A stretch of 64,000 bases of DNA, taken from assembly GCA_012439925.1 (NCBI GenBank), contig GCA_012439925.1_4519.1; one strand, given 5' to 3'. The notes below the pieces were generated by a model, which saw nothing but the letters and a program-made list of their open reading frames with translations, was not told the origin of the DNA and ran no database searches. This DNA is from a phage. Positions 8,138 through 17,440 of this stretch are shown here, one piece after another; position 1 is the stretch's first letter; each line of letters begins with the position of its first letter. The position numbers and the translations under genes are program-made.

Positions 8138-10849
8138 ATGAAAGAATTTTACTTAACGGTTGAACAGATTGGTGATTCAATTTTTGAACGTTACATCGAT
8201 TCTAATGGCCGTGAACGTACTCGTGAAGTAGAATATAAACCATCACTGTTTGCTCATTGTCCAGAAAGTCAGGCTACGAAATATTTCGATATCTATGGTA
8301 AGCCGTGTACTCGTAAGTTGTTCGCTAATATGCGTGATGCCTCCCAATGGATTAAACGCATGGAAGATATCGGACTTGAAGCACTTGGCATGGACGATTT
8401 CAAATTGGCGTATTTGTCTGACACTTATAACTATGAAATCAAATACGACCATACAAAAATTCGTGTGGCTAACTTCGACATCGAAGTAACATCTCCGGAT
8501 GGGTTCCCTGAGCCGTCACAAGCAAAACATCCGATTGATGCTATCACCCATTATGACTCAATTGACGACAGGTTCTACGTATTTGATCTATTGAATTCTC
8601 CATATGGTAATGTAGAAGAATGGTCTATTGAAATCGCTGCTAAGCTTCAAGAACAAGGTGGTGATGAAGTTCCATCTGAAATTATCGATAAAATCATTTA
8701 TATGCCGTTCGATAACGAAAAAGAATTGTTGATGGAATATCTCAACTTCTGGCAACAGAAAACTCCTGTCATTTTGACTGGATGGAACGTCGAGTCATTT
8801 GATATTCCATATGTGTATAACCGAATCAAGAATATTTTTGGTGAATCTACTGCGAAACGTTTATCACCACATCGTAAAACTCGTGTTAAAGTTATCGAAA
8901 ACATGTATGGTTCTCGTGAAATCATTACATTGTTCGGTATCTCGGTTCTTGATTACATTGACCTTTACAAAAAATTCTCTTTCACAAACCAACCGTCGTA
9001 TTCTTTGGATTACATTTCAGAATTTGAATTGAATGTTGGTAAACTGAAATATGACGGCCCTATTTCTAAGCTTCGTGAAAGCAATCACCAACGATATATT
9101 TCTTATAACATTATCGACGTGTATCGTGTATTGCAAATTGATGCTAAGCGTCAGTTCATCAACTTGAGTTTGGACATGGGTTATTATGCTAAGATACAGA
9201 TTCAATCTGTGTTTAGCCCAATTAAAACATGGGATGCTATTATTTTTAATAGCCTTAAAGAGCAGAACAAGGTGATTCCACAAGGTCGTTCTCACCCGGT
9301 TCAACCTTATCCTGGCGCTTTTGTTAAGGAACCTATTCCAAATCGATACAAATATGTAATGAGTTTCGACCTTACATCTCTGTATCCAAGTATTATTCGC
9401 CAAGTGAATATTAGCCCGGAAACAATAGCAGGAACGTTTAAAGTAGCTCCATTGCATGATTATATTAACGCAATCGCTGAACGTCCTTCAGATGTGTACA
9501 GTTGTTCTCCTAACGGCATGATGTATTATAAAGATCGTGATGGTGTAGTTCCAACTGAAATCACTAAGGTCTTTAATCAACGTAAAGAACATAAAGGTTA
9601 CATGCTTGCAGCTCAACGTAACGGTGAAATAATTAAAGAGGCATTGCATAATCCTAATCTTTCTGTTGACGAACCATTAGATGTTGATTATCGTTTCGAC
9701 TTCAGTGATGAGATTAAAGAAAAGATTAAAAAGTTGTCTGCTAAATCTCTTAATGAAATGTTGTTTAGAGCTCAACGTACTGAAGTTGCAGGTATGACTG
9801 CACAAATTAACCGTAAATTGCTTATCAACTCACTTTATGGTGCACTTGGCAACGTCTGGTTCCGTTATTATGATTTGCGTAATGCTACTGCAATCACAAC
9901 ATTCGGACAAATGGCTTTACAGTGGATTGAACGTAAAGTTAATGAATATCTGAATGAAGTTTGTGGTACAGAAGGTGAAGCTTTCGTTCTATATGGTGAT
10001 ACAGACTCCATTTATGTATCTGCAGATAAAATTATTGATAAGGTTGGTGAATCTAAATTCCGTGATACCAACCATTGGGTAGACTTCTTAGATAAGTTTG
10101 CACGTGAACGTATGGAACCTGCTATTGATAGAGGTTTCCGTGAAATGTGTGAATACATGAACAATAAACAACACTTAATGTTCATGGACCGAGAAGCTAT
10201 CGCTGGTCCTCCGCTCGGTTCTAAAGGTATTGGTGGATTCTGGACTGGTAAGAAACGTTATGCATTAAACGTGTGGGATATGGAAGGAACCAGATACGCT
10301 GAGCCTAAACTCAAAATCATGGGTCTCGAAACACAGAAATCTTCGACCCCTAAAGCAGTACAGAAAGCTCTTAAAGAATGTATTCGTCGTATGCTTCAAG
10401 AAGGTGAAGAATCATTACAAGAATATTTTAAAGAGTTTGAAAAAGAATTCCGTCAATTGGATTATATTAGCATCGCGTCGGTATCTTCTGCGAATAACAT
10501 TGCTAAATATGACGTTGGTGGATTCCCTGGCCCTAAATGTCCGTTCCATATTCGTGGAATTCTGACGTATAACCGGGCTATCAAAGGTAATATTGATGCT
10601 CCACAAGTTGTAGAAGGTGAAAAAGTATATGTTCTGCCTTTACGTGAAGGAAACCCATTCGGTGATAAATGTATCGCATGGCCTTCTGGTACTGAAATCA
10701 CAGATTTAATTAAAGACGACGTACTTCATTGGATGGACTACACTGTTCTCCTTGAGAAGACATTTATTAAACCACTTGAAGGATTCACATCAGCAGCGAA
10801 ACTCGATTACGAGAAGAAAGCATCTCTGTTCGATATGTTCGATTTTTGA
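8138..10849 (+). CDS. 43: DNA polymerase gp43 (family B)
   Basis: Exo motif FDIE, pol motifs LYPS and YGDTDS; 903 aa; the N-terminus MKEFYLTVEQIGDSIFERYIDSNGRERTRE is recognisably the RB69 polymerase. Confidence 0.95.
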   Translation: MKEFYLTVEQIGDSIFERYIDSNGRERTREVEYKPSLFAHCPESQATKYFDIYGKPCTRKLFANMRDASQWIKRMEDIGLEALGMDDFKLAYLSDTYNYEIKYDHTKIRVANFDIEVTSPDGFPEPSQAKHPIDAITHYDSIDDRFYVFDLLNSPYGNVEEWSIEIAAKLQEQGGDEVPSEIIDKIIYMPFDNEKELLMEYLNFWQQKTPVILTGWNVESFDIPYVYNRIKNIFGESTAKRLSPHRKTRVKVIENMYGSREIITLFGISVLDYIDLYKKFSFTNQPSYSLDYISEFELNVGKLKYDGPISKLRESNHQRYISYNIIDVYRVLQIDAKRQFINLSLDMGYYAKIQIQSVFSPIKTWDAIIFNSLKEQNKVIPQGRSHPVQPYPGAFVKEPIPNRYKYVMSFDLTSLYPSIIRQVNISPETIAGTFKVAPLHDYINAIAERPSDVYSCSPNGMMYYKDRDGVVPTEITKVFNQRKEHKGYMLAAQRNGEIIKEALHNPNLSVDEPLDVDYRFDFSDEIKEKIKKLSAKSLNEMLFRAQRTEVAGMTAQINRKLLINSLYGALGNVWFRYYDLRNATAITTFGQMALQWIERKVNEYLNEVCGTEGEAFVLYGDTDSIYVSADKIIDKVGESKFRDTNHWVDFLDKFARERMEPAIDRGFREMCEYMNNKQHLMFMDREAIAGPPLGSKGIGGFWTGKKRYALNVWDMEGTRYAEPKLKIMGLETQKSSTPKAVQKALKECIRRMLQEGEESLQEYFKEFEKEFRQLDYISIASVSSANNIAKYDVGGFPGPKCPFHIRGILTYNRAIKGNIDAPQVVEGEKVYVLPLREGNPFGDKCIAWPSGTEITDLIKDDVLHWMDYTVLLEKTFIKPLEGFTSAAKLDYEKKASLFDMFDF

Positions 10850-10889: not shown

Positions 10890-11525
10890 ATGAAAACTAC
10901 TCCTATTACTATCGCTATTGACGCAATCATAAAACAAGCTTCTTCTTTGGCCGCTATGGCCAAAGTAATTAGTCAAAACTCTGCCCGATATAATGCTATT
11001 CTTGAAACTCTTCGTCGCCCTGGACTGAGTAATTATGAAAGCCGAGTAATTATTACAGGTGTTGGTAAGAACGCTAATATCGCAACTAAAGCTTCTGAGA
11101 CATTTGCTTCACTCGGTATCCCAAGTATGTACTTGAACACCGGGCATTATTCTCACGGTGATGCAGGATTCATTGCGCCTAATGATGTGTTGATTCATAT
11201 TAGTCGTTCTGGTAAGACTGAAGAAATGATAGGCGTGGCTAAGCATCTTAAAATGATTCGTCCTCAGGTTAAACAGATTCTGTTACATTGTAACCCTGAC
11301 ATTCCGCAAGAATACGAAGCTCTTTTTGATTATACGTTCTGTACCGGCATCGCGGTAGAGGTTGATGAGAATTCTCTGGCTCCTACAATGTCCACTACAT
11401 TGTTGTTAGCGCTTATCGATACGTTCGCTATCAACCTTTCGTCTGAACGCGGATTTACCTCTAATGACTTCCTTAAGTTCCATCCAGGCGGTGCACTAGG
11501 TGCCATGTTACGAGGCGAACAATGA
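10890..11525 (+). CDS. SIS-domain sugar-phosphate isomerase (arabinose-5-phosphate isomerase KdsD/GutQ-like, no CBS domains)
   Basis: SIS signatures VIITGVGKNANIATKASETFASLG, HGDAGFIAPNDVLIHISRSGKTEE and APTMSTT align with the KdsD/KpsF N-terminal domain. Confidence 0.8.
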   Translation: MKTTPITIAIDAIIKQASSLAAMAKVISQNSARYNAILETLRRPGLSNYESRVIITGVGKNANIATKASETFASLGIPSMYLNTGHYSHGDAGFIAPNDVLIHISRSGKTEEMIGVAKHLKMIRPQVKQILLHCNPDIPQEYEALFDYTFCTGIAVEVDENSLAPTMSTTLLLALIDTFAINLSSERGFTSNDFLKFHPGGALGAMLRGEQ

Positions 11526-11706: not shown

Positions 11707-13392
11707 ATGAAAAAAGCTGTTATTCTTGGTGCTGGACTGGCAACTCGTTTGTATCCAATAACGCACCATATTCCTAAGGTGCTTGTTAACTATAAACAAG
11801 ACACTATTCTGAGCAATTTGTATACAATTTATTCTGACCTTGGTGCAGATGAAATTATTGTAGTAGTTCATTCAAAATTTGTTGAAACTGTTCGAGCTTA
11901 TTGTGAGCAAGAAGGGTTCAATGTGACTATTCGTACAGTTGATGAAGCGTATGGTTCTGCTTATGCTCTTGCTAAATTATACAAAGATTTAGATGGCCAT
12001 AACGTAATTGTTAACTGGTGTGATATTATTCCTGATTTTGGTTCATGGTCTTGGAATGTTAACGCAATCTATGTTAAGGGTGATGAATGTCGATATAATT
12101 TCGATGGTGAAAATATCACTAACGTAGGTTCAACAGGCGGTAATGTTGTAGGAATTTATCAGTTCAAAGACTGGGAATTCTACATGGGTTCTACTGATGA
12201 GGAAATTCACGAATACTGCAAAGGACGTGATTTCGTAGAATTCCTTTACGGCAGTGCATTCAATAAATCAGAGCTTATGAATCTAATTGATTTAGGTGAT
12301 ATGCCTAAACTTGAAAAGGCTCATGAAGTTCGTGAACTGAATCGTAGTTTTAATGCAGTTGAAATTGGCGAAGAAACTGTAACTAAATTCGCGTTAACCG
12401 AACAAGGTCGAGCTCTTCAAAAAGATGAGATTTCATGGTATTTGAAAGTGAAATCAGATTCAGTTCCTCAGTTAGTTTCGGTAAATGAAAATAATTTTGA
12501 AATGGAACGCATTAAAGGTAAGCCAGCATTTGAATATATTAAATCCAAATCAAGTCTTGCTCGTCCACAAATTGTTGATGCAATTTTAGATGCACTGAAA
12601 TTCAGCACAGACACTTATTTTGTAAGTCCTGAAACTGTTCGTCGTGATTTCACTAAAGAATTCTATACGAAAGTTATTGATCGTTGTGAAAGCATTCAAC
12701 CATTGATTGATTCATTTGGTAAAATCACACATGTGAACTACACTAAGATTGGACGGCTGAAGCCAATGCTGAAACAAGCTTTAGAACACCTTATTCGTTA
12801 TCATAACCGTTCTCAGGGACAGTACTCTGTTATTCACGGTGACCCAAACTTCAGTAATACTATGATTACTGATAACGGCGAAGTCAAGTTTATCGACCCT
12901 CGTGGATATTTTGGTGAAACCAAGATTTACGGGCCAAAATTGTATGATGAAGCTAAAGTGCTTTATGCTGTTTCAGGTTATGATGAATTCAACGCTAATC
13001 CGACCTGGGGCCAGTTTACTATTGATGAAACAACTTGTAATGTGACTATTAACATCAATCCATTAGTTTACAAATATGGAAAGATGAGTTCGTTTAACGA
13101 GTATCATCATTTGGCAGTGGCAATTATCTGGATTGCATTAGGTGGTTATTTCAAGAATAATCCACTTAAAGCGGTAGCCGCATATTATAAAGGTATGGAA
13201 CTTCTAACTAAGCAATTACGTAACATGGGCCGTGTACTTCAAGACGGCTCTATTAGTTATGACGTAGCAGAACCTGTAACGGCTACTCTGATTACAAAAA
13301 ATCCTGGTAAATGGGTACTAACTGATAAAGAAACTGGTGTTTCCTATCGTCCAATCGGTGGCGATATCACTCATCAATGGGAACGAATCTAA
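11707..13392 (+). CDS. Bifunctional sugar-1-phosphate nucleotidyltransferase / anomeric sugar kinase (MurU-AmgK-like fusion)
   Basis: N-terminal MKKAVILGAGLATRLYPIT is the sugar nucleotidyltransferase G-x-G-x-R-L motif; C-terminal HGDPNFSNTMI ... KFIDPRG are the Brenner (HxDxxxxN) and DFG-like motifs of APH/choline-kinase-fold kinases. Confidence 0.75.
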   Translation: MKKAVILGAGLATRLYPITHHIPKVLVNYKQDTILSNLYTIYSDLGADEIIVVVHSKFVETVRAYCEQEGFNVTIRTVDEAYGSAYALAKLYKDLDGHNVIVNWCDIIPDFGSWSWNVNAIYVKGDECRYNFDGENITNVGSTGGNVVGIYQFKDWEFYMGSTDEEIHEYCKGRDFVEFLYGSAFNKSELMNLIDLGDMPKLEKAHEVRELNRSFNAVEIGEETVTKFALTEQGRALQKDEISWYLKVKSDSVPQLVSVNENNFEMERIKGKPAFEYIKSKSSLARPQIVDAILDALKFSTDTYFVSPETVRRDFTKEFYTKVIDRCESIQPLIDSFGKITHVNYTKIGRLKPMLKQALEHLIRYHNRSQGQYSVIHGDPNFSNTMITDNGEVKFIDPRGYFGETKIYGPKLYDEAKVLYAVSGYDEFNANPTWGQFTIDETTCNVTININPLVYKYGKMSSFNEYHHLAVAIIWIALGGYFKNNPLKAVAAYYKGMELLTKQLRNMGRVLQDGSISYDVAEPVTATLITKNPGKWVLTDKETGVSYRPIGGDITHQWERI

Positions 13393-13778
13393 TGCACCGT
13401 GTAGAAAACATGCTTAATCTTTGTTTTGATGTCGATGATTGTATAACAGAGTGGAATAACAATCGTGATTACGTGAACTTCAAACCAGACGTAGAAATGG
13501 TGACCGCCATTAATGCCCTGTATGATGCAGGGCATACCATAACGCTTTACACTGCTCGCGGTATGAAGTCAGTAGGTCCTGGACGTATAGCAATTGACAT
13601 TCTCCCAAGTCTGATTCAGAACTTGGCAAACATTGGCTTGAAGTACCATAATTTGCTAACACATAAACCAGTATATGATTGGATTATCGACGACAAAGCT
13701 ATGCGTCCTGACGAATTCAAAGCTCTTATGAATAAAGGCGAATTCGAAACATTTAAATCGTATAAACCGAATCTATAA
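13392..13778 (+). CDS. HAD-like phosphatase
   Basis: N-terminal LCFDVDDCIT (HAD motif I-like), TLYTARG, WIIDDK (motif IV-like); TAATG overlap with the upstream gene. An alternative ATG at 13377 exists. Confidence 0.55.
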   Translation: MHRVENMLNLCFDVDDCITEWNNNRDYVNFKPDVEMVTAINALYDAGHTITLYTARGMKSVGPGRIAIDILPSLIQNLANIGLKYHNLLTHKPVYDWIIDDKAMRPDEFKALMNKGEFETFKSYKPNL

Positions 13779-13835
13779 TAATTTAAGTAAGACCTGCAAA
13801 AAACCATCGCATCAATTAACGTGAGATGCAAAAAA

Positions 13836-14996
13836 ATGAATACTTTTAAAATCGGAACGAATTTTGATTTAGCTCTTCTTGATAAAATCGTAGAGCTCAA
13901 TAAAACTTATCCTAATAGCTTGATAAACGAAGTATATGGCTCTACAAGAGAAATGGCTTTTGTAGCAGCCAGACCTGATTTTAGGCTTCCTGACGTTGAC
14001 AAAAAGATGTTAGAAGACTACGTTAAACGTTGTAACGAATTAGGTATTTGCTTTAACTATACACTCAACACGATAAATCCTGGTTCAAAAAGAGAACTAG
14101 TTGAGTGGAAGAAGAAAGCTATTCAGGATTATGTTCAGTATCTTTGGTCAATAGGCGTATGGCGTATTACTATCGCTAACCCTGTTGTTATGGAAATTGT
14201 TCGTGAAGTCAATAAAGATATTGAGATTGAAGTTTCAACAATTCTACATGTTGATGCTGTAACTCAAATCAAATACTTGCATGACCAATATAACATCAAA
14301 AAGGTCTGTTGCGGAATTCATAAGAACCGTTCAGTTTCTTTCCTGAAGCGTGCAGCAGAGTTTTGCAATAAGAACAATATAATATTTGAAGTTCTTGTAA
14401 ATGAGTTCTGTTCTAATGCTGGTAAAGGGTATACAACACATTGTAGCTATCGTGACTCTTGCTATATTTTCCATAGTACTGATGTTACCGCTGATGATGC
14501 TAAATCCTTAAATGGATATCCTATGCAGCACTGTATTAAAGCTCGTGATACAGACCCATTTAACTGGCTGAGAACTCGTTTTGTTCGTCCTCAAGATTTG
14601 AAACTTTATAATGATATTGGTATCACTCAATTCAAAGTTTCAGGACGTACAGGTAGCACAGACTACATTTTGAAAGTTCTTGAAGCATACGCTTCTGAAA
14701 AGTTTGAAGGTAATTTGTTAGAACTGTGGAAGCCTTTAGAGACTATTTTCACTCTTGAAAATGAGACTGAGTTTTCACATACAGTAAATATTGAAACCTC
14801 TTTGTTAGATGGCTTTTTAGAAAAAAGGTGGTTCAGACATCCAGATTTTGATTGTGCTAATGAAATCTGTGGGTCAACGTGTACATATTGTGAAAGGTAT
14901 TATAAACGTCAATTATCTAAAAACGGGTTAGCAGAAAACTCCATATCTATTATTGATATAACTAACTCTGATGACGCTTTGAGGTACCCGGAATGA
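13836..14996 (+). CDS. U32-family protein (peptidase U32 / RlhA-TrhP-UbiU-like fold)
   Basis: Blockwise correspondence with U32 proteins (RPDFRLP ... GICFNYTLNTIN ... NPVVMEIVRE ... EVSTILHVDA ... FEVLVNEFCS) plus a C-terminal Cys cluster CANEICGSTCTYC. The ORF-track start at 13821 is GTG; the first ATG is 13836. Confidence 0.6.
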   Translation: MNTFKIGTNFDLALLDKIVELNKTYPNSLINEVYGSTREMAFVAARPDFRLPDVDKKMLEDYVKRCNELGICFNYTLNTINPGSKRELVEWKKKAIQDYVQYLWSIGVWRITIANPVVMEIVREVNKDIEIEVSTILHVDAVTQIKYLHDQYNIKKVCCGIHKNRSVSFLKRAAEFCNKNNIIFEVLVNEFCSNAGKGYTTHCSYRDSCYIFHSTDVTADDAKSLNGYPMQHCIKARDTDPFNWLRTRFVRPQDLKLYNDIGITQFKVSGRTGSTDYILKVLEAYASEKFEGNLLELWKPLETIFTLENETEFSHTVNIETSLLDGFLEKRWFRHPDFDCANEICGSTCTYCERYYKRQLSKNGLAENSISIIDITNSDDALRYPE

Positions 14997-15232
14997 TTTC
15001 TAGAAAAAGTTTTAATTATAAACTTAACGAAGAGATTTTGACTATGAAACTGAACACTAACGAACAAATTCTTAAAAAGGCCCTTATGGGCCTGTTTGAA
15101 ACCAAAGCGGCTAAAGTGATTAAAGAACCTGTTCAATTGGAATACTACACTGATGCATTCCTTCATAGTGTTCTTGGAAGTATAGATTCTGAAGCTTTAC
15201 GGTATATCAACACTGCCAAGAAATTCAAATAA
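14993..15232 (+). CDS. Hypothetical protein
   Basis: ATGA overlap with the U32 gene; GAGG SD. Confidence 0.45.
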   Translation: MISRKSFNYKLNEEILTMKLNTNEQILKKALMGLFETKAAKVIKEPVQLEYYTDAFLHSVLGSIDSEALRYINTAKKFK

Positions 15233-15274: not shown

Positions 15275-15991
15275 ATGGGAAAACATAACACAATGAAATA
15301 TATCAAAGCCGCAGATTTTCAAACCGCATTTAAAGCAGTCAATCGTGAAATTTTAGAAAACCCGGAATTCGTAACTGATTCTCGTATTGGACGTTGTAAT
15401 GAAATTGGGTCTATGACAGTAGTTGTTGACACTCCATCATCATTCAAAATGACCGACCCACGTATTAACCGCATCTCTTATGAATATGCCGAAGACTTCT
15501 GGAAGTTTATGATTTCTGGTGGTACCAACGCAGAAGAAGCGTTTAAGGCATATCCTAATGTCGCTAAATTTATTTCTAAACCAAAATCAGATGTTTTGCC
15601 GGCGAACTTCAACACTTTCTATGGTCCTCGCATTGCGGCCCAATTACCAACTCTTCTAAAAGAACTTAAAGAAAAACCTAACTCTCGAAGAGTTGTGTTC
15701 CAAATTCTAGAAAGTTCTGATCAGGCTTTGCTTGATTCGGACGAAACACTTGAATATCCATGTACTGACTCAGTAACTTATTATATTCGTGATGGTAAGC
15801 TTTATACCCACTGTCATATGCGTTCTCAGAACTGTGCTGTTGTTATGCAGTTGGATTTTTATCTCCAAGGAAAATTACTTCATTATATCGCTAACGAATG
15901 CGGTGTAGAAGTTGGTGATTATACTCATACCATGGTAAGTGCCCATGTGTTTGAACGTGATTTTGATTATGTTAAAGGATTCCTTGACTAA
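15275..15991 (+). CDS. 42: dCMP hydroxymethylase gp42 (thymidylate-synthase fold)
   Basis: TS-superfamily core PCTDSVTYYIRDGKLYTHCHMRSQNCAVVMQLDFYLQ (catalytic Cys and the RS(Q/N) block); 238 aa; located between 43 and uvsX as in T4. Confidence 0.7.
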   Translation: MGKHNTMKYIKAADFQTAFKAVNREILENPEFVTDSRIGRCNEIGSMTVVVDTPSSFKMTDPRINRISYEYAEDFWKFMISGGTNAEEAFKAYPNVAKFISKPKSDVLPANFNTFYGPRIAAQLPTLLKELKEKPNSRRVVFQILESSDQALLDSDETLEYPCTDSVTYYIRDGKLYTHCHMRSQNCAVVMQLDFYLQGKLLHYIANECGVEVGDYTHTMVSAHVFERDFDYVKGFLD

Positions 15992-16890
15992 TGGCTATTT
16001 TCCGCGTACCTATCTTGAGTATGCGGTCTTATGAAACTGGACAGTATGCTATCCTTAAGGATGGCAACTTCCAACTTCATTTGCACCGTGCTAATCCGGG
16101 TGATGCGATTACATATCCACGTAATGCATCTGATATTAAAGAATGCGAACGTCTTTTCCCAGAATTTAAGTTTGTTCCATTATGGTATAAAGATAACGCG
16201 TATAACACTCGTAAATATTTCTGGACTGAAAATGAATTTGTAGTTGATTCATTAATTGATTATTATGATTGTGATTTTCTAATCACAGATATCACCGGTT
16301 ATGGCGGCGCTTTTGATGTGGAATTCAATTTCAATATCACTGCAGACCCTAATAAACCACGCTTTTATATTGATGAATTCTTAAAAACCGATATGTTGTC
16401 AGTTAATCGTTCACTTCAAACTACTGTGTTGAATGAACGTCAAAAGGAAGTGCTGGTTAACGCAGGTGCAGATGGTAATAAGATTATTGTAACGCAGAAA
16501 GTTATACGTCCTTCCATCATGCAGCGTCTTGTAGGTGATTTGGCTCCTATTCATCTAGATGGTATTTTTCATCCATTTCGAATTAGTGACCCATGTTATC
16601 GTTTTGAACAAGTGGTTGAATGTGCAATTCAATTAGGTCAACCGCTTTATATAACTGATCCAAATAATAGCTTTGACAGAAATAAGTATCCTGAAGAAGC
16701 GCTGATTCGAATTTTTAAACCAACTAAAACTGAGTACTATCAAATTCTTAAAGGACGTCCGAAGATTCAATATTTCGAAAATCCTGAAGAAGTATTCCAT
16801 CCAGGTCTTGGTGAGTTCATCTACTTTAATGCTTTAATTTCTTCACCGTATAATATACCTAAATACGAAGATGTCGTAATCGAGGAATAA
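15991..16890 (+). CDS. Hypothetical protein (299 aa) at the beta-gt locus
   Basis: TAATG overlap with gene 42; occupies the position of beta-glucosyltransferase in T4 but has no similarity to it that I can see. Confidence 0.6.
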   Translation: MAIFRVPILSMRSYETGQYAILKDGNFQLHLHRANPGDAITYPRNASDIKECERLFPEFKFVPLWYKDNAYNTRKYFWTENEFVVDSLIDYYDCDFLITDITGYGGAFDVEFNFNITADPNKPRFYIDEFLKTDMLSVNRSLQTTVLNERQKEVLVNAGADGNKIIVTQKVIRPSIMQRLVGDLAPIHLDGIFHPFRISDPCYRFEQVVECAIQLGQPLYITDPNNSFDRNKYPEEALIRIFKPTKTEYYQILKGRPKIQYFENPEEVFHPGLGEFIYFNALISSPYNIPKYEDVVIEE

Positions 16891-16891
16891 A

Positions 16892-17440
16892 ATGGCTAAA
16901 ATTATTTTAGTAGACGGCCCAGATAATGCTGGTAAAACAACTTTCATTAATGACATAATGGAAATTAGTGAAAGATATGTAAAGATTGATTTCCCTAAAC
17001 GAACAGTTGATGGACGTTTCGATGTTAAGTCTCGAAATGAAGTTGGTTGTTTCGAAACGATGTTGAATTATTTAGACCCTACTAAGATTTATCTGTTAGA
17101 CCGTGGATATATTAGTAACTGGGTTTATGGACGTATTCGACAAGATGCGGACTCGGTTCTTGACGTTTATGAACAGGACTATGTTCGTCTTTGCCAAAAC
17201 CATGATGTGTTCACAATTATTTTAACACGTAACGAAATGACTGAAAGTTTTGAAGACGACCTTATTACTTTGTCTTCATTCGGTTTTAATACAGTCATTT
17301 CACATTTTGAAGAGTTTGCAATTCATAACAAAATCCAAACGTATCAATTACTTAATCATGATGGTTCTAACAAAGTTATAGGATTTAATGCAAGCGAACG
17401 TAATAATTTGATTACAGAAATCATCAAATGGGCTCGTTAA
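16892..17440 (+). CDS. Thymidylate-kinase-like P-loop nucleotide kinase
   Basis: P-loop IILVDGPDNAGKTT and LLDRGYISNWVYG resembling the TMPK DR(Y/H)xxSxxAY motif. Confidence 0.5.
   Translation: MAKIILVDGPDNAGKTTFINDIMEISERYVKIDFPKRTVDGRFDVKSRNEVGCFETMLNYLDPTKIYLLDRGYISNWVYGRIRQDADSVLDVYEQDYVRLCQNHDVFTIILTRNEMTESFEDDLITLSSFGFNTVISHFEEFAIHNKIQTYQLLNHDGSNKVIGFNASERNNLITEIIKWAR

Follow-up and report, generated by a model that had tools for sequence, protein, structure and literature searches.

A U32-family protein in the DNA arabinosylation cluster of RB69-group phages: a candidate prephenate-dependent, oxygen-independent route to 5-hydroxycytosine

Introduction

What might a protein of the U32 family contribute to the genes with which a T4-like phage arabinosylates its DNA? 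The question is raised by a 64,000-nucleotide stretch of phage DNA (contig GCA_012439925.1_4519.1 of GenBank assembly GCA_012439925.1; the whole stretch is referred to as the window), which comes from a T4-type coliphage of the RB69 group (Mosigvirus), and in which a gene at 13836..14996 (+) encodes a 386-amino acid (aa) U32 protein orthologous to RB69p050 (gp50). Lee et al. (NAR 2026, PMC13326640) derived the structure of RB69 DNA from liquid chromatography-mass spectrometry (MS) and nuclear magnetic resonance (NMR), and found mono- and di-arabinosylated 5-hydroxycytosine (5hoC), not arabinosyl-hydroxymethylcytosine. In their pathway gp48, with which a flavin co-purifies, is a 5-hydroxy-deoxycytidylate (5-hydroxy-dCMP) synthase that draws its oxygen from 18O2; that O2 is the source was confirmed in vitro by He et al., as cited in the same paper. 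The sugar branch consists only of an isomerase, a bifunctional AfhE-type kinase/nucleotidyltransferase and an AfhF-type phosphatase, and complete replacement of cytosine is achieved at the nucleotide level (PMC13326640). Arabinosylated 5hoC was also reported for phages Bas46 and Bas47, and for Acinetobacter phage DLP3, whose cluster (gp76-83) lacks a U32 gene (PMC13326640). That paper names RB69p050 itself once, in an entry of Table 1 that records a match to 5D88 and the label "Sugar or heterocycle reductase"; the protein is absent from the text and was the subject of no experiment there, and the Discussion mentions RNA pyrimidine hydroxylation pathways without connecting them to gene 50. In the accessible literature we found no paper linking phage, U32 and either chorismate mutase or 5-hydroxycytosine.

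These data alter the terms in which the gene had been viewed. An earlier note on the window took the thymidylate synthase (TS) homolog downstream of U32 for a dCMP hydroxymethylase, and expected of the U32 protein an additional, undescribed chemical step. The first of these assignments is superseded by the experimental identification of RB69 gp48 as a flavin- and O2-dependent 5-hydroxy-dCMP synthase, and the base by arabinosyl-5-hydroxycytosine (PMC13326640). The second is not favoured, because the reported structure of RB69 DNA is fully accounted for without a further step; DLP3 moreover is reported to have the arabinosylated base without U32, and phage IME341 has the cluster without U32. The note was right that arabinose activation requires no such enzyme, the published steps being those of the isomerase, kinase/nucleotidyltransferase and phosphatase (PMC13326640). 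These phages infect gut bacteria and possess an anaerobic ribonucleotide reductase, and yet O2 is required by the only hydroxylase known for the 5-hydroxycytosine pathway.

Molecular function has been established for very few proteins of the U32 family (PMC10990095, PMC6747719), and those few are borne out in the literature as the precedents for O2-independent hydroxylation that the note had named (PMC10990095, PMC6599085, PMC6747719). Labelling with 18O-shikimate identified prephenate as donor of the oxygen in hydroxylations that depend on UbiU/UbiV, whose function is restored by the chorismate mutase domain of PheA alone (PMC10990095). TrhP likewise needs prephenate, acts independently of O2 and is paired with the O2-dependent TrhO, a pair argued to serve organisms of both oxic and anoxic niches (PMC6599085). 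RlhA is the U32 factor for 5-hydroxycytidine at C2501 of 23S rRNA (PMC10990095, PMC6599085, PMC6747719), and has also been linked to prephenate and iron (PMC10990095, PMC6747719). In light of the evidence below we consider it probable, with some reserve, that the phage U32 protein is a prephenate-dependent, O2-independent C5 hydroxylase, most likely acting on dCMP. The interpretation of the gene should move away from an extra step and towards a second route, independent of O2, to the same C5 hydroxylation.

Results and Discussion

Linkage of U32 to chorismate mutase

The strongest evidence is the linkage of U32 to chorismate mutase, the enzyme that forms prephenate, in related phages, and thus lies outside the window. 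A type II chorismate mutase gene, located ahead of the TS homolog and sharing a 4-bp overlap with the U32 stop codon, is present in Serratia phage LC53 and in Enterobacter phage Entb_45. Both products match Pfam CM_2 (44.6 bits in LC53 and 40.9 bits in Entb_45, against a cut-off of 27), and the phage enzymes retain R11, R28, K39, E52, S84 and Q88 of the E. coli enzyme (EcCM; reference verified against genomic pheA). By tblastn the gene is present in 51 phage records from approximately 12 host genera (Klebsiella, Serratia, Yersinia, Enterobacter, Edwardsiella, Erwinia, Pectobacterium, Shewanella, Providencia, Morganella, Kosakonia and, in phage EcS1, Escherichia), and by hidden Markov model (HMM) search in two Proteus phage loci of the IMG/VR set (L022 and L023). 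It lies 0-350 nt from U32 in all 13 records for which both coordinates are listed, and the 4-bp overlap of LC53 and Entb_45 recurs in Shewanella phage Thanatos-2. In Thanatos-2 the pair follows the kinase gene (locus L060, 4501-5891) instead of lying between phosphatase and TS homolog, and so has moved as a cassette. Elsewhere among 50,697 phage records, genes for chorismate mutase and DAHP synthase hardly occur.

Family, fold and cysteine sites

The open reading frame (ORF) spans 13821/13836..14996 (+), and the ATG at 13836, which yields 386 aa, fits the N-terminus of the orthologs (consensus xMNxFKxGxNFD). All of the blocks by which the U32 family had been recognized in the earlier note (RPDF, GICFNYTLNTIN, NPVVMEIVRE, EVSTILHVDA, FEVLVNEFCS and CANEICGSTCTYC) are found in the translation, and membership is confirmed by Pfam PF01136, Peptidase_U32 (42.2 bits against a gathering cut-off of 22.4; residues 94-286). 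The fold is the U32-type TIM barrel, as in 5D88 (Mk0906, the only solved member found), while a sequence search of the PDB with the protein gave no match. In hhalign comparisons with the four characterised E. coli proteins, which aligned only partially, the family profile matched RlhA (E 9.6e-6, 205 columns), TrhP (0.002), UbiU (0.007) and UbiV (0.19), such that RlhA, a cytidine-C5 hydroxylation factor, is the closest characterised relative. The phage proteins nonetheless constitute a separate U32 subfamily, orthologous to none of UbiU, UbiV, TrhP or RlhA. With RlhA (YdcP) the phage protein shares the U32 domain, a C-x-Y-x3-C-Y-x2-H core and three cysteine positions, and the chemistry of the RlhA product, C5 hydroxylation of cytosine, is the same as that proposed here. 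RlhA differs in its greater length (653 aa, with extra C-terminal regions) and rRNA substrate, whereas the 386-aa phage protein occurs in a DNA-precursor context and has a C-terminal CX4CX3CX2C motif of its own.

Nine cysteines (C158, C192, C203, C209, C233, C340, C345, C349 and C352) are invariant in 92 family members, down to 47% identity. The first five, with codons at 14307..14534 (+), constitute a candidate [4Fe-4S] site of the U32 domain; C203/C209/C233 align with C169/C176/C193 of UbiU, C169/C176/C192 of RlhA and C170/C177/C193 of TrhP, and UbiU and UbiV are each known to bind one [4Fe-4S] cluster via defined cysteines (PMC6747719). The spacing in the phage protein is CX5CX23C, compared with the canonical CX6CX15CX3/4C, and by alignment three of the four canonical positions are kept. 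The invariant, family-specific C192 or C158 may replace the fourth ligand, which is displaced in UbiU (C232) and UbiV (C39) as well (PMC6747719). The remaining four cysteines lie in the motif C340-x4-C345-G-x-T-C349-x-Y-C352 (14853..14891 (+)), a candidate second metal or Fe-S site in which G346, T348 and Y351 are conserved at 99%, 83% and 96%, respectively, and across which (residues 340-352) the predicted local distance difference test score is approximately 94-96. This four-cysteine cluster had been noted earlier as the end of the protein; the cluster is indeed present, but 34 further residues follow, which form a lineage-specific tail of low confidence in structure prediction. The last three cysteines of the motif fit the radical-SAM-like spacing CX3CX(aromatic)C, and the fourth suggests a fully ligated cluster or a zinc site instead. 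E. coli RlhA likewise has four extra C-terminal cysteines (572, 580, 611 and 614).

Distribution across phages and hosts

U32 is found in 222 phage records, all of Straboviridae with Enterobacterales-type or Shewanella hosts. For the TS-type enzyme the count is 374 records, of which 57 are from Acinetobacter and 20 from Rhizobium phages; none of the 57 or of the 20 contains U32. In Acinetobacter phage fHyAci03 the HAD phosphatase gene directly adjoins the TS homolog, with no U32, and in Rhizobium phage RL38J1 neither U32 nor chorismate mutase was found. The same host bias characterizes the anaerobic ribonucleotide reductase NrdD, which was used as a control: its 2,778 records stem mostly from hosts able to grow without O2, and Acinetobacter falls outside the ten commonest names. 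RB69 encodes both NrdAB and NrdDG, an aerobic and an anaerobic enzyme for one DNA-precursor step in T4-like phages; as the reaction and the protein families differ from those considered here, the analogy is one of design only.

Among T4-like genomes, the co-occurrence of U32 with modification genes holds in one direction. U32 is found only where 5hoC-type or arabinosylation genes occur, but not in all phages that possess them, and is an accessory rather than a core gene of the arabinosyl-5-hydroxycytosine cluster. It is not alone in this respect. Dhakaviruses and Marfaviruses lack the SIS isomerase gene, IME341 (locus L058) lacks U32 and chorismate mutase in addition, and the isomerase gene is also absent from L011 (IMGVR_UViG_2974546015_000001, 168,532 bp). 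Presence of the precursor-supply genes (isomerase and chorismate mutase) hence varies, and their place is presumably taken by host enzymes.

Distant U32 loci on jumbo-phage contigs

U32 proteins of approximately 50-58% identity are encoded on large, phage-like contigs, the longest of 466 kb. We compared 35 such non-Straboviridae loci with 15 Straboviridae loci, taking in neighbours within 8 kb of U32. Across the 35, U32 recurs beside homologs of the glycosyltransferase, AfhE-type enzyme, arabinose-5-phosphate isomerase and KdsC-like phosphatase; in differently arranged loci its neighbours are a dUTPase_2/dCTPase-like protein (25.6 bits with Pfam dUTPase_2), a thymidylate-kinase-like protein, primase and Pol III alpha. 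A chorismate mutase, DAHP synthase-chorismate mutase fusion or DAHP synthase is encoded within the 8 kb in 13 of the 35 loci, directly adjacent to U32 or one gene off in most of those mapped. The TS-type hydroxylase profile, which matched in all 15 Straboviridae loci, matched in none of the 35 over the same distance, and the simplest reading of this gene content is that U32 would be the hydroxylase of these TS-less cassettes. A hidden TS-like hydroxylase was sought among the unlabelled neighbours with Pfam and PHROGs, and was rejected (c45 is SSB-like, c34 has a dUTPase fold, c43 is RecA, c64 is DnaC-like and the rest gave no match). Likewise, the DAHP_synth_1 neighbours are not KDO-8-P synthases, scoring 221 bits with DAHP synthase models and 67 with KDO8PS.

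A DAHP synthase with a C-terminal chorismate mutase domain adjoins U32 in L035 (6411-7433) and L049 (9079-10197), and also in L036, L038 and L039. The nearest named cellular relatives of these fusions, at approximately 46% identity, are all Bacteroidota (Apibacter, Tannerellaceae, Crocinitomicaceae and Ginsengibacter), which hints at Bacteroidota as the host phylum. On one jumbo contig a dCMP deaminase gene lies directly upstream of U32. An 86-kb contig (L002, 8001-9098 and 13227-14360; also L003) encodes two U32 paralogs of 365 and 377 aa, which recall the paired UbiU/UbiV, and the L002 locus further contains a radical-SAM/SPASM protein, an NT5C 5'-nucleotidase, a deoxynucleoside kinase and a nucleoside deoxyribosyltransferase-like gene. 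In one jumbo-phage group (L041, L044, L046, L047, L050 and L052; approximately 4.6-7.5 kb, (-)), genes for a pair of RimK-like ATP-grasp proteins, of which one is fused to an NlpC/P60 domain, lie upstream of the U32 cassette.

Proposed function

We propose that the U32 protein, as an Fe-S enzyme, would hydroxylate cytosine at C5 without O2, the oxygen atom coming from prephenate as in UbiU/UbiV. With dCMP as the likely substrate, before replication, it would provide a second route to 5-hydroxy-dCMP, which would then be phosphorylated, incorporated into DNA and arabinosylated. Protected DNA might therefore still be made during anaerobic growth of the host, for example in the gut, where the flavin- and O2-dependent 5-hydroxy-dCMP synthase cannot work. 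The chorismate mutase of related phages would serve to raise the supply of prephenate. The data establish the family and fold of the protein, its conserved cysteines, the linkage of its gene and its phyletic distribution; its activity, its substrate, the donor of oxygen and the physiological role are inferred.

Such a pairing has counterparts. UbiU/UbiV are U32 Fe-S proteins with prephenate as donor, paired with the flavin- and O2-dependent UbiIHF, and the same logic is proposed here for gp50 and gp48; they differ in forming a heterodimer with one cluster each and a lipid substrate, where the phage has one U32 gene with two cysteine clusters, and the similarity is weak. TrhP and TrhO arrive at one C5-hydroxypyrimidine by two routes, as proposed here, one through a prephenate-dependent U32 protein and the other O2-dependent, but their substrate is uridine U34 of tRNA, and the O2-dependent partner is of rhodanese type, not a TS homolog. 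The enzyme that U32 would back up (gp48 of RB69, gp80 of DLP3) belongs to the same cluster and has the same proposed product, 5-hydroxy-dCMP; in contrast to U32 it has an unrelated fold, relies on flavin and O2, and occurs in phages of strict aerobes without U32.

A broader reading joins the Straboviridae and jumbo-phage loci, and we offer it as possible, our belief in it falling somewhat short of even. The U32 family would then be a virus-encoded, prephenate-dependent and O2-independent deoxycytidylate C5 hydroxylase, the first U32 enzyme whose substrate is a DNA precursor, and likewise the first whose substrate is small and soluble. It would be a backup to the TS-like enzyme in Straboviridae of facultative anaerobes, and the only hydroxylase of an arabinosylation-type pathway in a range of jumbo phages. 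Both groups would bring their own prephenate supply (chorismate mutase, or fusions with DAHP synthase), redirecting aromatic amino acid metabolism to DNA modification.

If this is so, an O2-independent route would explain how DNA is protected from restriction and CRISPR in anoxic niches, which is relevant to phage therapy candidates of this group. A cheap, soluble nucleotide substrate would make the mechanism of prephenate as oxygen donor directly testable, in a field that awaits an assay (PMC10990095). Phage chorismate mutase and DAHP synthase would represent a new kind of auxiliary metabolic gene, one serving DNA modification, and the "peptidase" label on hundreds of phage genomes would need correcting.

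Several observations weigh against prephenate-dependent hydroxylation by the window's protein, or narrow its scope. A six-frame HMM search detected no chorismate mutase in the window, nor is the gene found in any Mosigvirus record matched or in Marfavirus, and the strongest argument is consequently borrowed from relatives. The Mosigvirus lineage appears to have lost the mutase, since gp49 of the window, which follows U32, is a different protein and a gp49-like gene occurs together with a chorismate mutase gene in Yersinia and Serratia phages; the window's phage would then depend on PheA and TyrA of its host. The Fe-S cysteine of the fourth canonical position (CX3/4C) is lacking, and the ligand must come from elsewhere. 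The best NCBIfam match, UbiU at 18.5 bits, is far under the equivalog cut-off of 440. In E. coli Dhakaviruses the TS-type enzyme occurs without U32 (the IME341 cluster), and U32 is thus not needed by every enteric phage. The correlation with aerobic and anaerobic hosts rests on few independent lineages, and the absence of TS from the jumbo contigs pertains to the 8 kb around U32, not to whole genomes. An anaerobic habitat for the jumbo phages does not follow from the origin of the DAHP synthase fusions, which indicates only Bacteroidota, a phylum with both aerobes and anaerobes. Finally, the accessible literature holds no biochemical or genetic test of the phage U32 protein, and direct hydroxylase activity in vitro has been reconstituted for no U32 protein (PMC10990095).

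Alternative explanations

The same chemistry might be directed at another substrate, either cytosines already in DNA, after replication, or a different nucleotide, such as dCTP or dUMP, rather than dCMP. RlhA and TrhP both act on polynucleotides (PMC10990095, PMC6599085), and the dCMP deaminase upstream of U32 in one jumbo contig could point to dUMP. Against this, the C-terminal extensions of RlhA (653 aa) and TrhP (453 aa), which are assumed to bind RNA, are absent from the 386-aa phage protein; the neighbours of U32 in TS-less loci (dUTPase_2/dCTPase-like protein, nucleotide kinase and polymerase) resemble a pre-replicative nucleotide cassette, and replacement of cytosine in RB69 is complete at the nucleotide level (PMC13326640). 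We regard a different substrate as unlikely, though it has the best claim among the alternatives. The position of U32 among sugar-activation genes, with which it co-occurs even in distant phages, and the label given to it by Lee et al. (PMC13326640), would suit an enzyme that alters an arabinose intermediate or another small molecule, or introduces a second, undescribed modification. This too we think unlikely, and slightly more so: neither the published pathway nor the DNA structure determined by NMR and MS requires more steps, arabinosylated 5hoC was reported in DLP3 without the gene (PMC13326640), and IME341 and fHyAci03 have the cluster without it. Coupling to chorismate mutase and DAHP synthase would also be left unaccounted for. 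We know of no U32 protein that acts as a sugar reductase.

That RlhA is the closest characterised homolog, and that T4-like phages carry tRNA genes, could instead suggest an RNA-modifying factor of the TrhP/RlhA type, which would hydroxylate host or phage tRNA or rRNA and so tune translation during infection. We find this improbable, as U32 is located inside DNA-modification cassettes in every lineage examined, near glycosyltransferases, nucleotide kinases and polymerases, and is absent from the many T4-like phages that use hydroxymethylcytosine, being found only alongside 5hoC-type or arabinosylation genes. It is still less probable that the gene is a decaying remnant in the lineage of the window. 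Loss of the chorismate mutase partner from every Mosigvirus record matched, and the variable and often truncated state of the adjacent gp49, would be expected of decay; the protein is nevertheless intact, retains all of the invariant family residues and shows identity of at least 99% across 134 Mosigvirus records, and E. coli PheA and TyrA supply prephenate (PMC10990095). By sequence comparison, then, the gene appears to be under strong purifying selection despite the missing mutase. A peptidase, as annotated in GenBank and PHROGs, is the explanation to which we give the least credence, for it draws on database names ("peptidase", "collagenase-like protease"), while in the accessible literature U32 proteins figure as Fe-S hydroxylation factors (PMC10990095, PMC6747719), and neither nine invariant cysteines nor linkage to nucleotide metabolism and chorismate mutase has a protease rationale.

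The surrounding cluster

The region from 10.8 to 17.5 kb of the window is 97-99% identical to many RB69-group phages, and U32 is situated, as the earlier note had it, inside a DNA-modification cluster, among arabinosylation genes between DNA polymerase and uvsX. The DNA polymerase gene (gp43; 8138-10849 (+)) is followed by a SIS-domain arabinose-5-phosphate isomerase (10890..11525 (+); RB69 gp55 ortholog), which matches NCBIfam KpsF/GutQ (112.9 bits) and KdsD (107.7 bits). Next come the bifunctional, AfhE-type sugar-1-phosphate nucleotidyltransferase/kinase (11707..13392 (+); RB69 gp52:53), with a Pfam NTP_transferase domain and a kinase-like C-terminus, and the AfhF-type, HAD-family sugar phosphatase (13377..13778 (+); RB69 gp51), which matches the NCBIfam EcbF-BcbF capsule biosynthesis phosphatase (49.2 bits), the roles of both being taken from PMC13326640. 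Beyond U32 lie the 79-aa gp49 ortholog (14993..15232 (+)) and the TS homolog (15275..15991 (+); Pfam Thymidylat_synt, 57.2 bits), which is 98.7% identical to RB69ORF048c, the O2- and flavin-dependent 5-hydroxy-dCMP synthase gp48. U32 is hence not immediately upstream of the TS homolog, as had been supposed, since the gp49 ORF intervenes. A candidate DNA arabinosyltransferase (15991..16890 (+); RB69 gp46:47), assigned to cluster c1 and with its role drawn from PMC13326640, has homologs that recur beside U32 in 39 of the 50 loci compared. The 3' side of the cluster is formed by a P-loop nucleotide kinase (16892..17440 (+); RB69 gp45), with a weak dTMP-kinase match and a structural assignment in Table 1 of PMC13326640, and then by uvsX. 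The order isomerase, AfhE-type enzyme, HAD phosphatase, U32, gp49 slot, TS homolog, glycosyltransferase and kinase is the same in LC53 and Entb_45. The AfhE-type (561 aa) and glycosyltransferase (299 aa) genes are single intact ORFs in the window, where the RB69 reference splits them into ORF52/53 and ORF46/47, which supports the published view that those splits are sequencing errors.

Co-transcription of the cluster genes is plausible from their packed and overlapping arrangement, and from a scan that found no terminator-like site on the + strand from 10.7 to 17.7 kb. A sigma-70-like site (TTTAAA, 16 nt, TATAAT) occurs at 13752-13779 (+), 57 nt 5' of the U32 start codon; as a promoter scan found such sites to be fewer in the region than in shuffled sequence, it may be due to chance.

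The gp49 ORF, which takes the position that chorismate mutase has in many related phages, is translationally coupled to U32, their stop and start codons overlapping by 4 bp (ATGA), and belongs to phrog_8601, a group of unknown function. It evolves far faster than U32, being mostly 80-95% identical across Mosigvirus records compared with at least 99%, and in close relatives it is frequently cut short, to 47-58 aa. Within a shallow homolog set, the motifs Y-Y/F-x-D-A-F-x-H-S and R-H-I-N-x-A-K-R are conserved. A diverged chorismate mutase was considered and rejected, as gp49 had no Pfam or NCBIfam CM_2/AroQ match at E values up to 10, and an hhalign probability of 0.8% against the phage chorismate mutase profile; it is also unrelated to an 82-aa ORF upstream of U32 in jumbo contigs (hhalign probability 0.3%). 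In the Yersinia and Serratia phages where both genes coexist, the order is U32, gp49-like, chorismate mutase and TS. The gp49 protein could be an accessory factor of U32. Several phages (L005, 4352-4990; also L014, L017, L020 and L021) have a 212-aa endonuclease-like gene between the HAD and U32 genes, annotated in LC53 as 'putative endonuclease', which is probably a homing endonuclease that uses the HAD-U32 junction.

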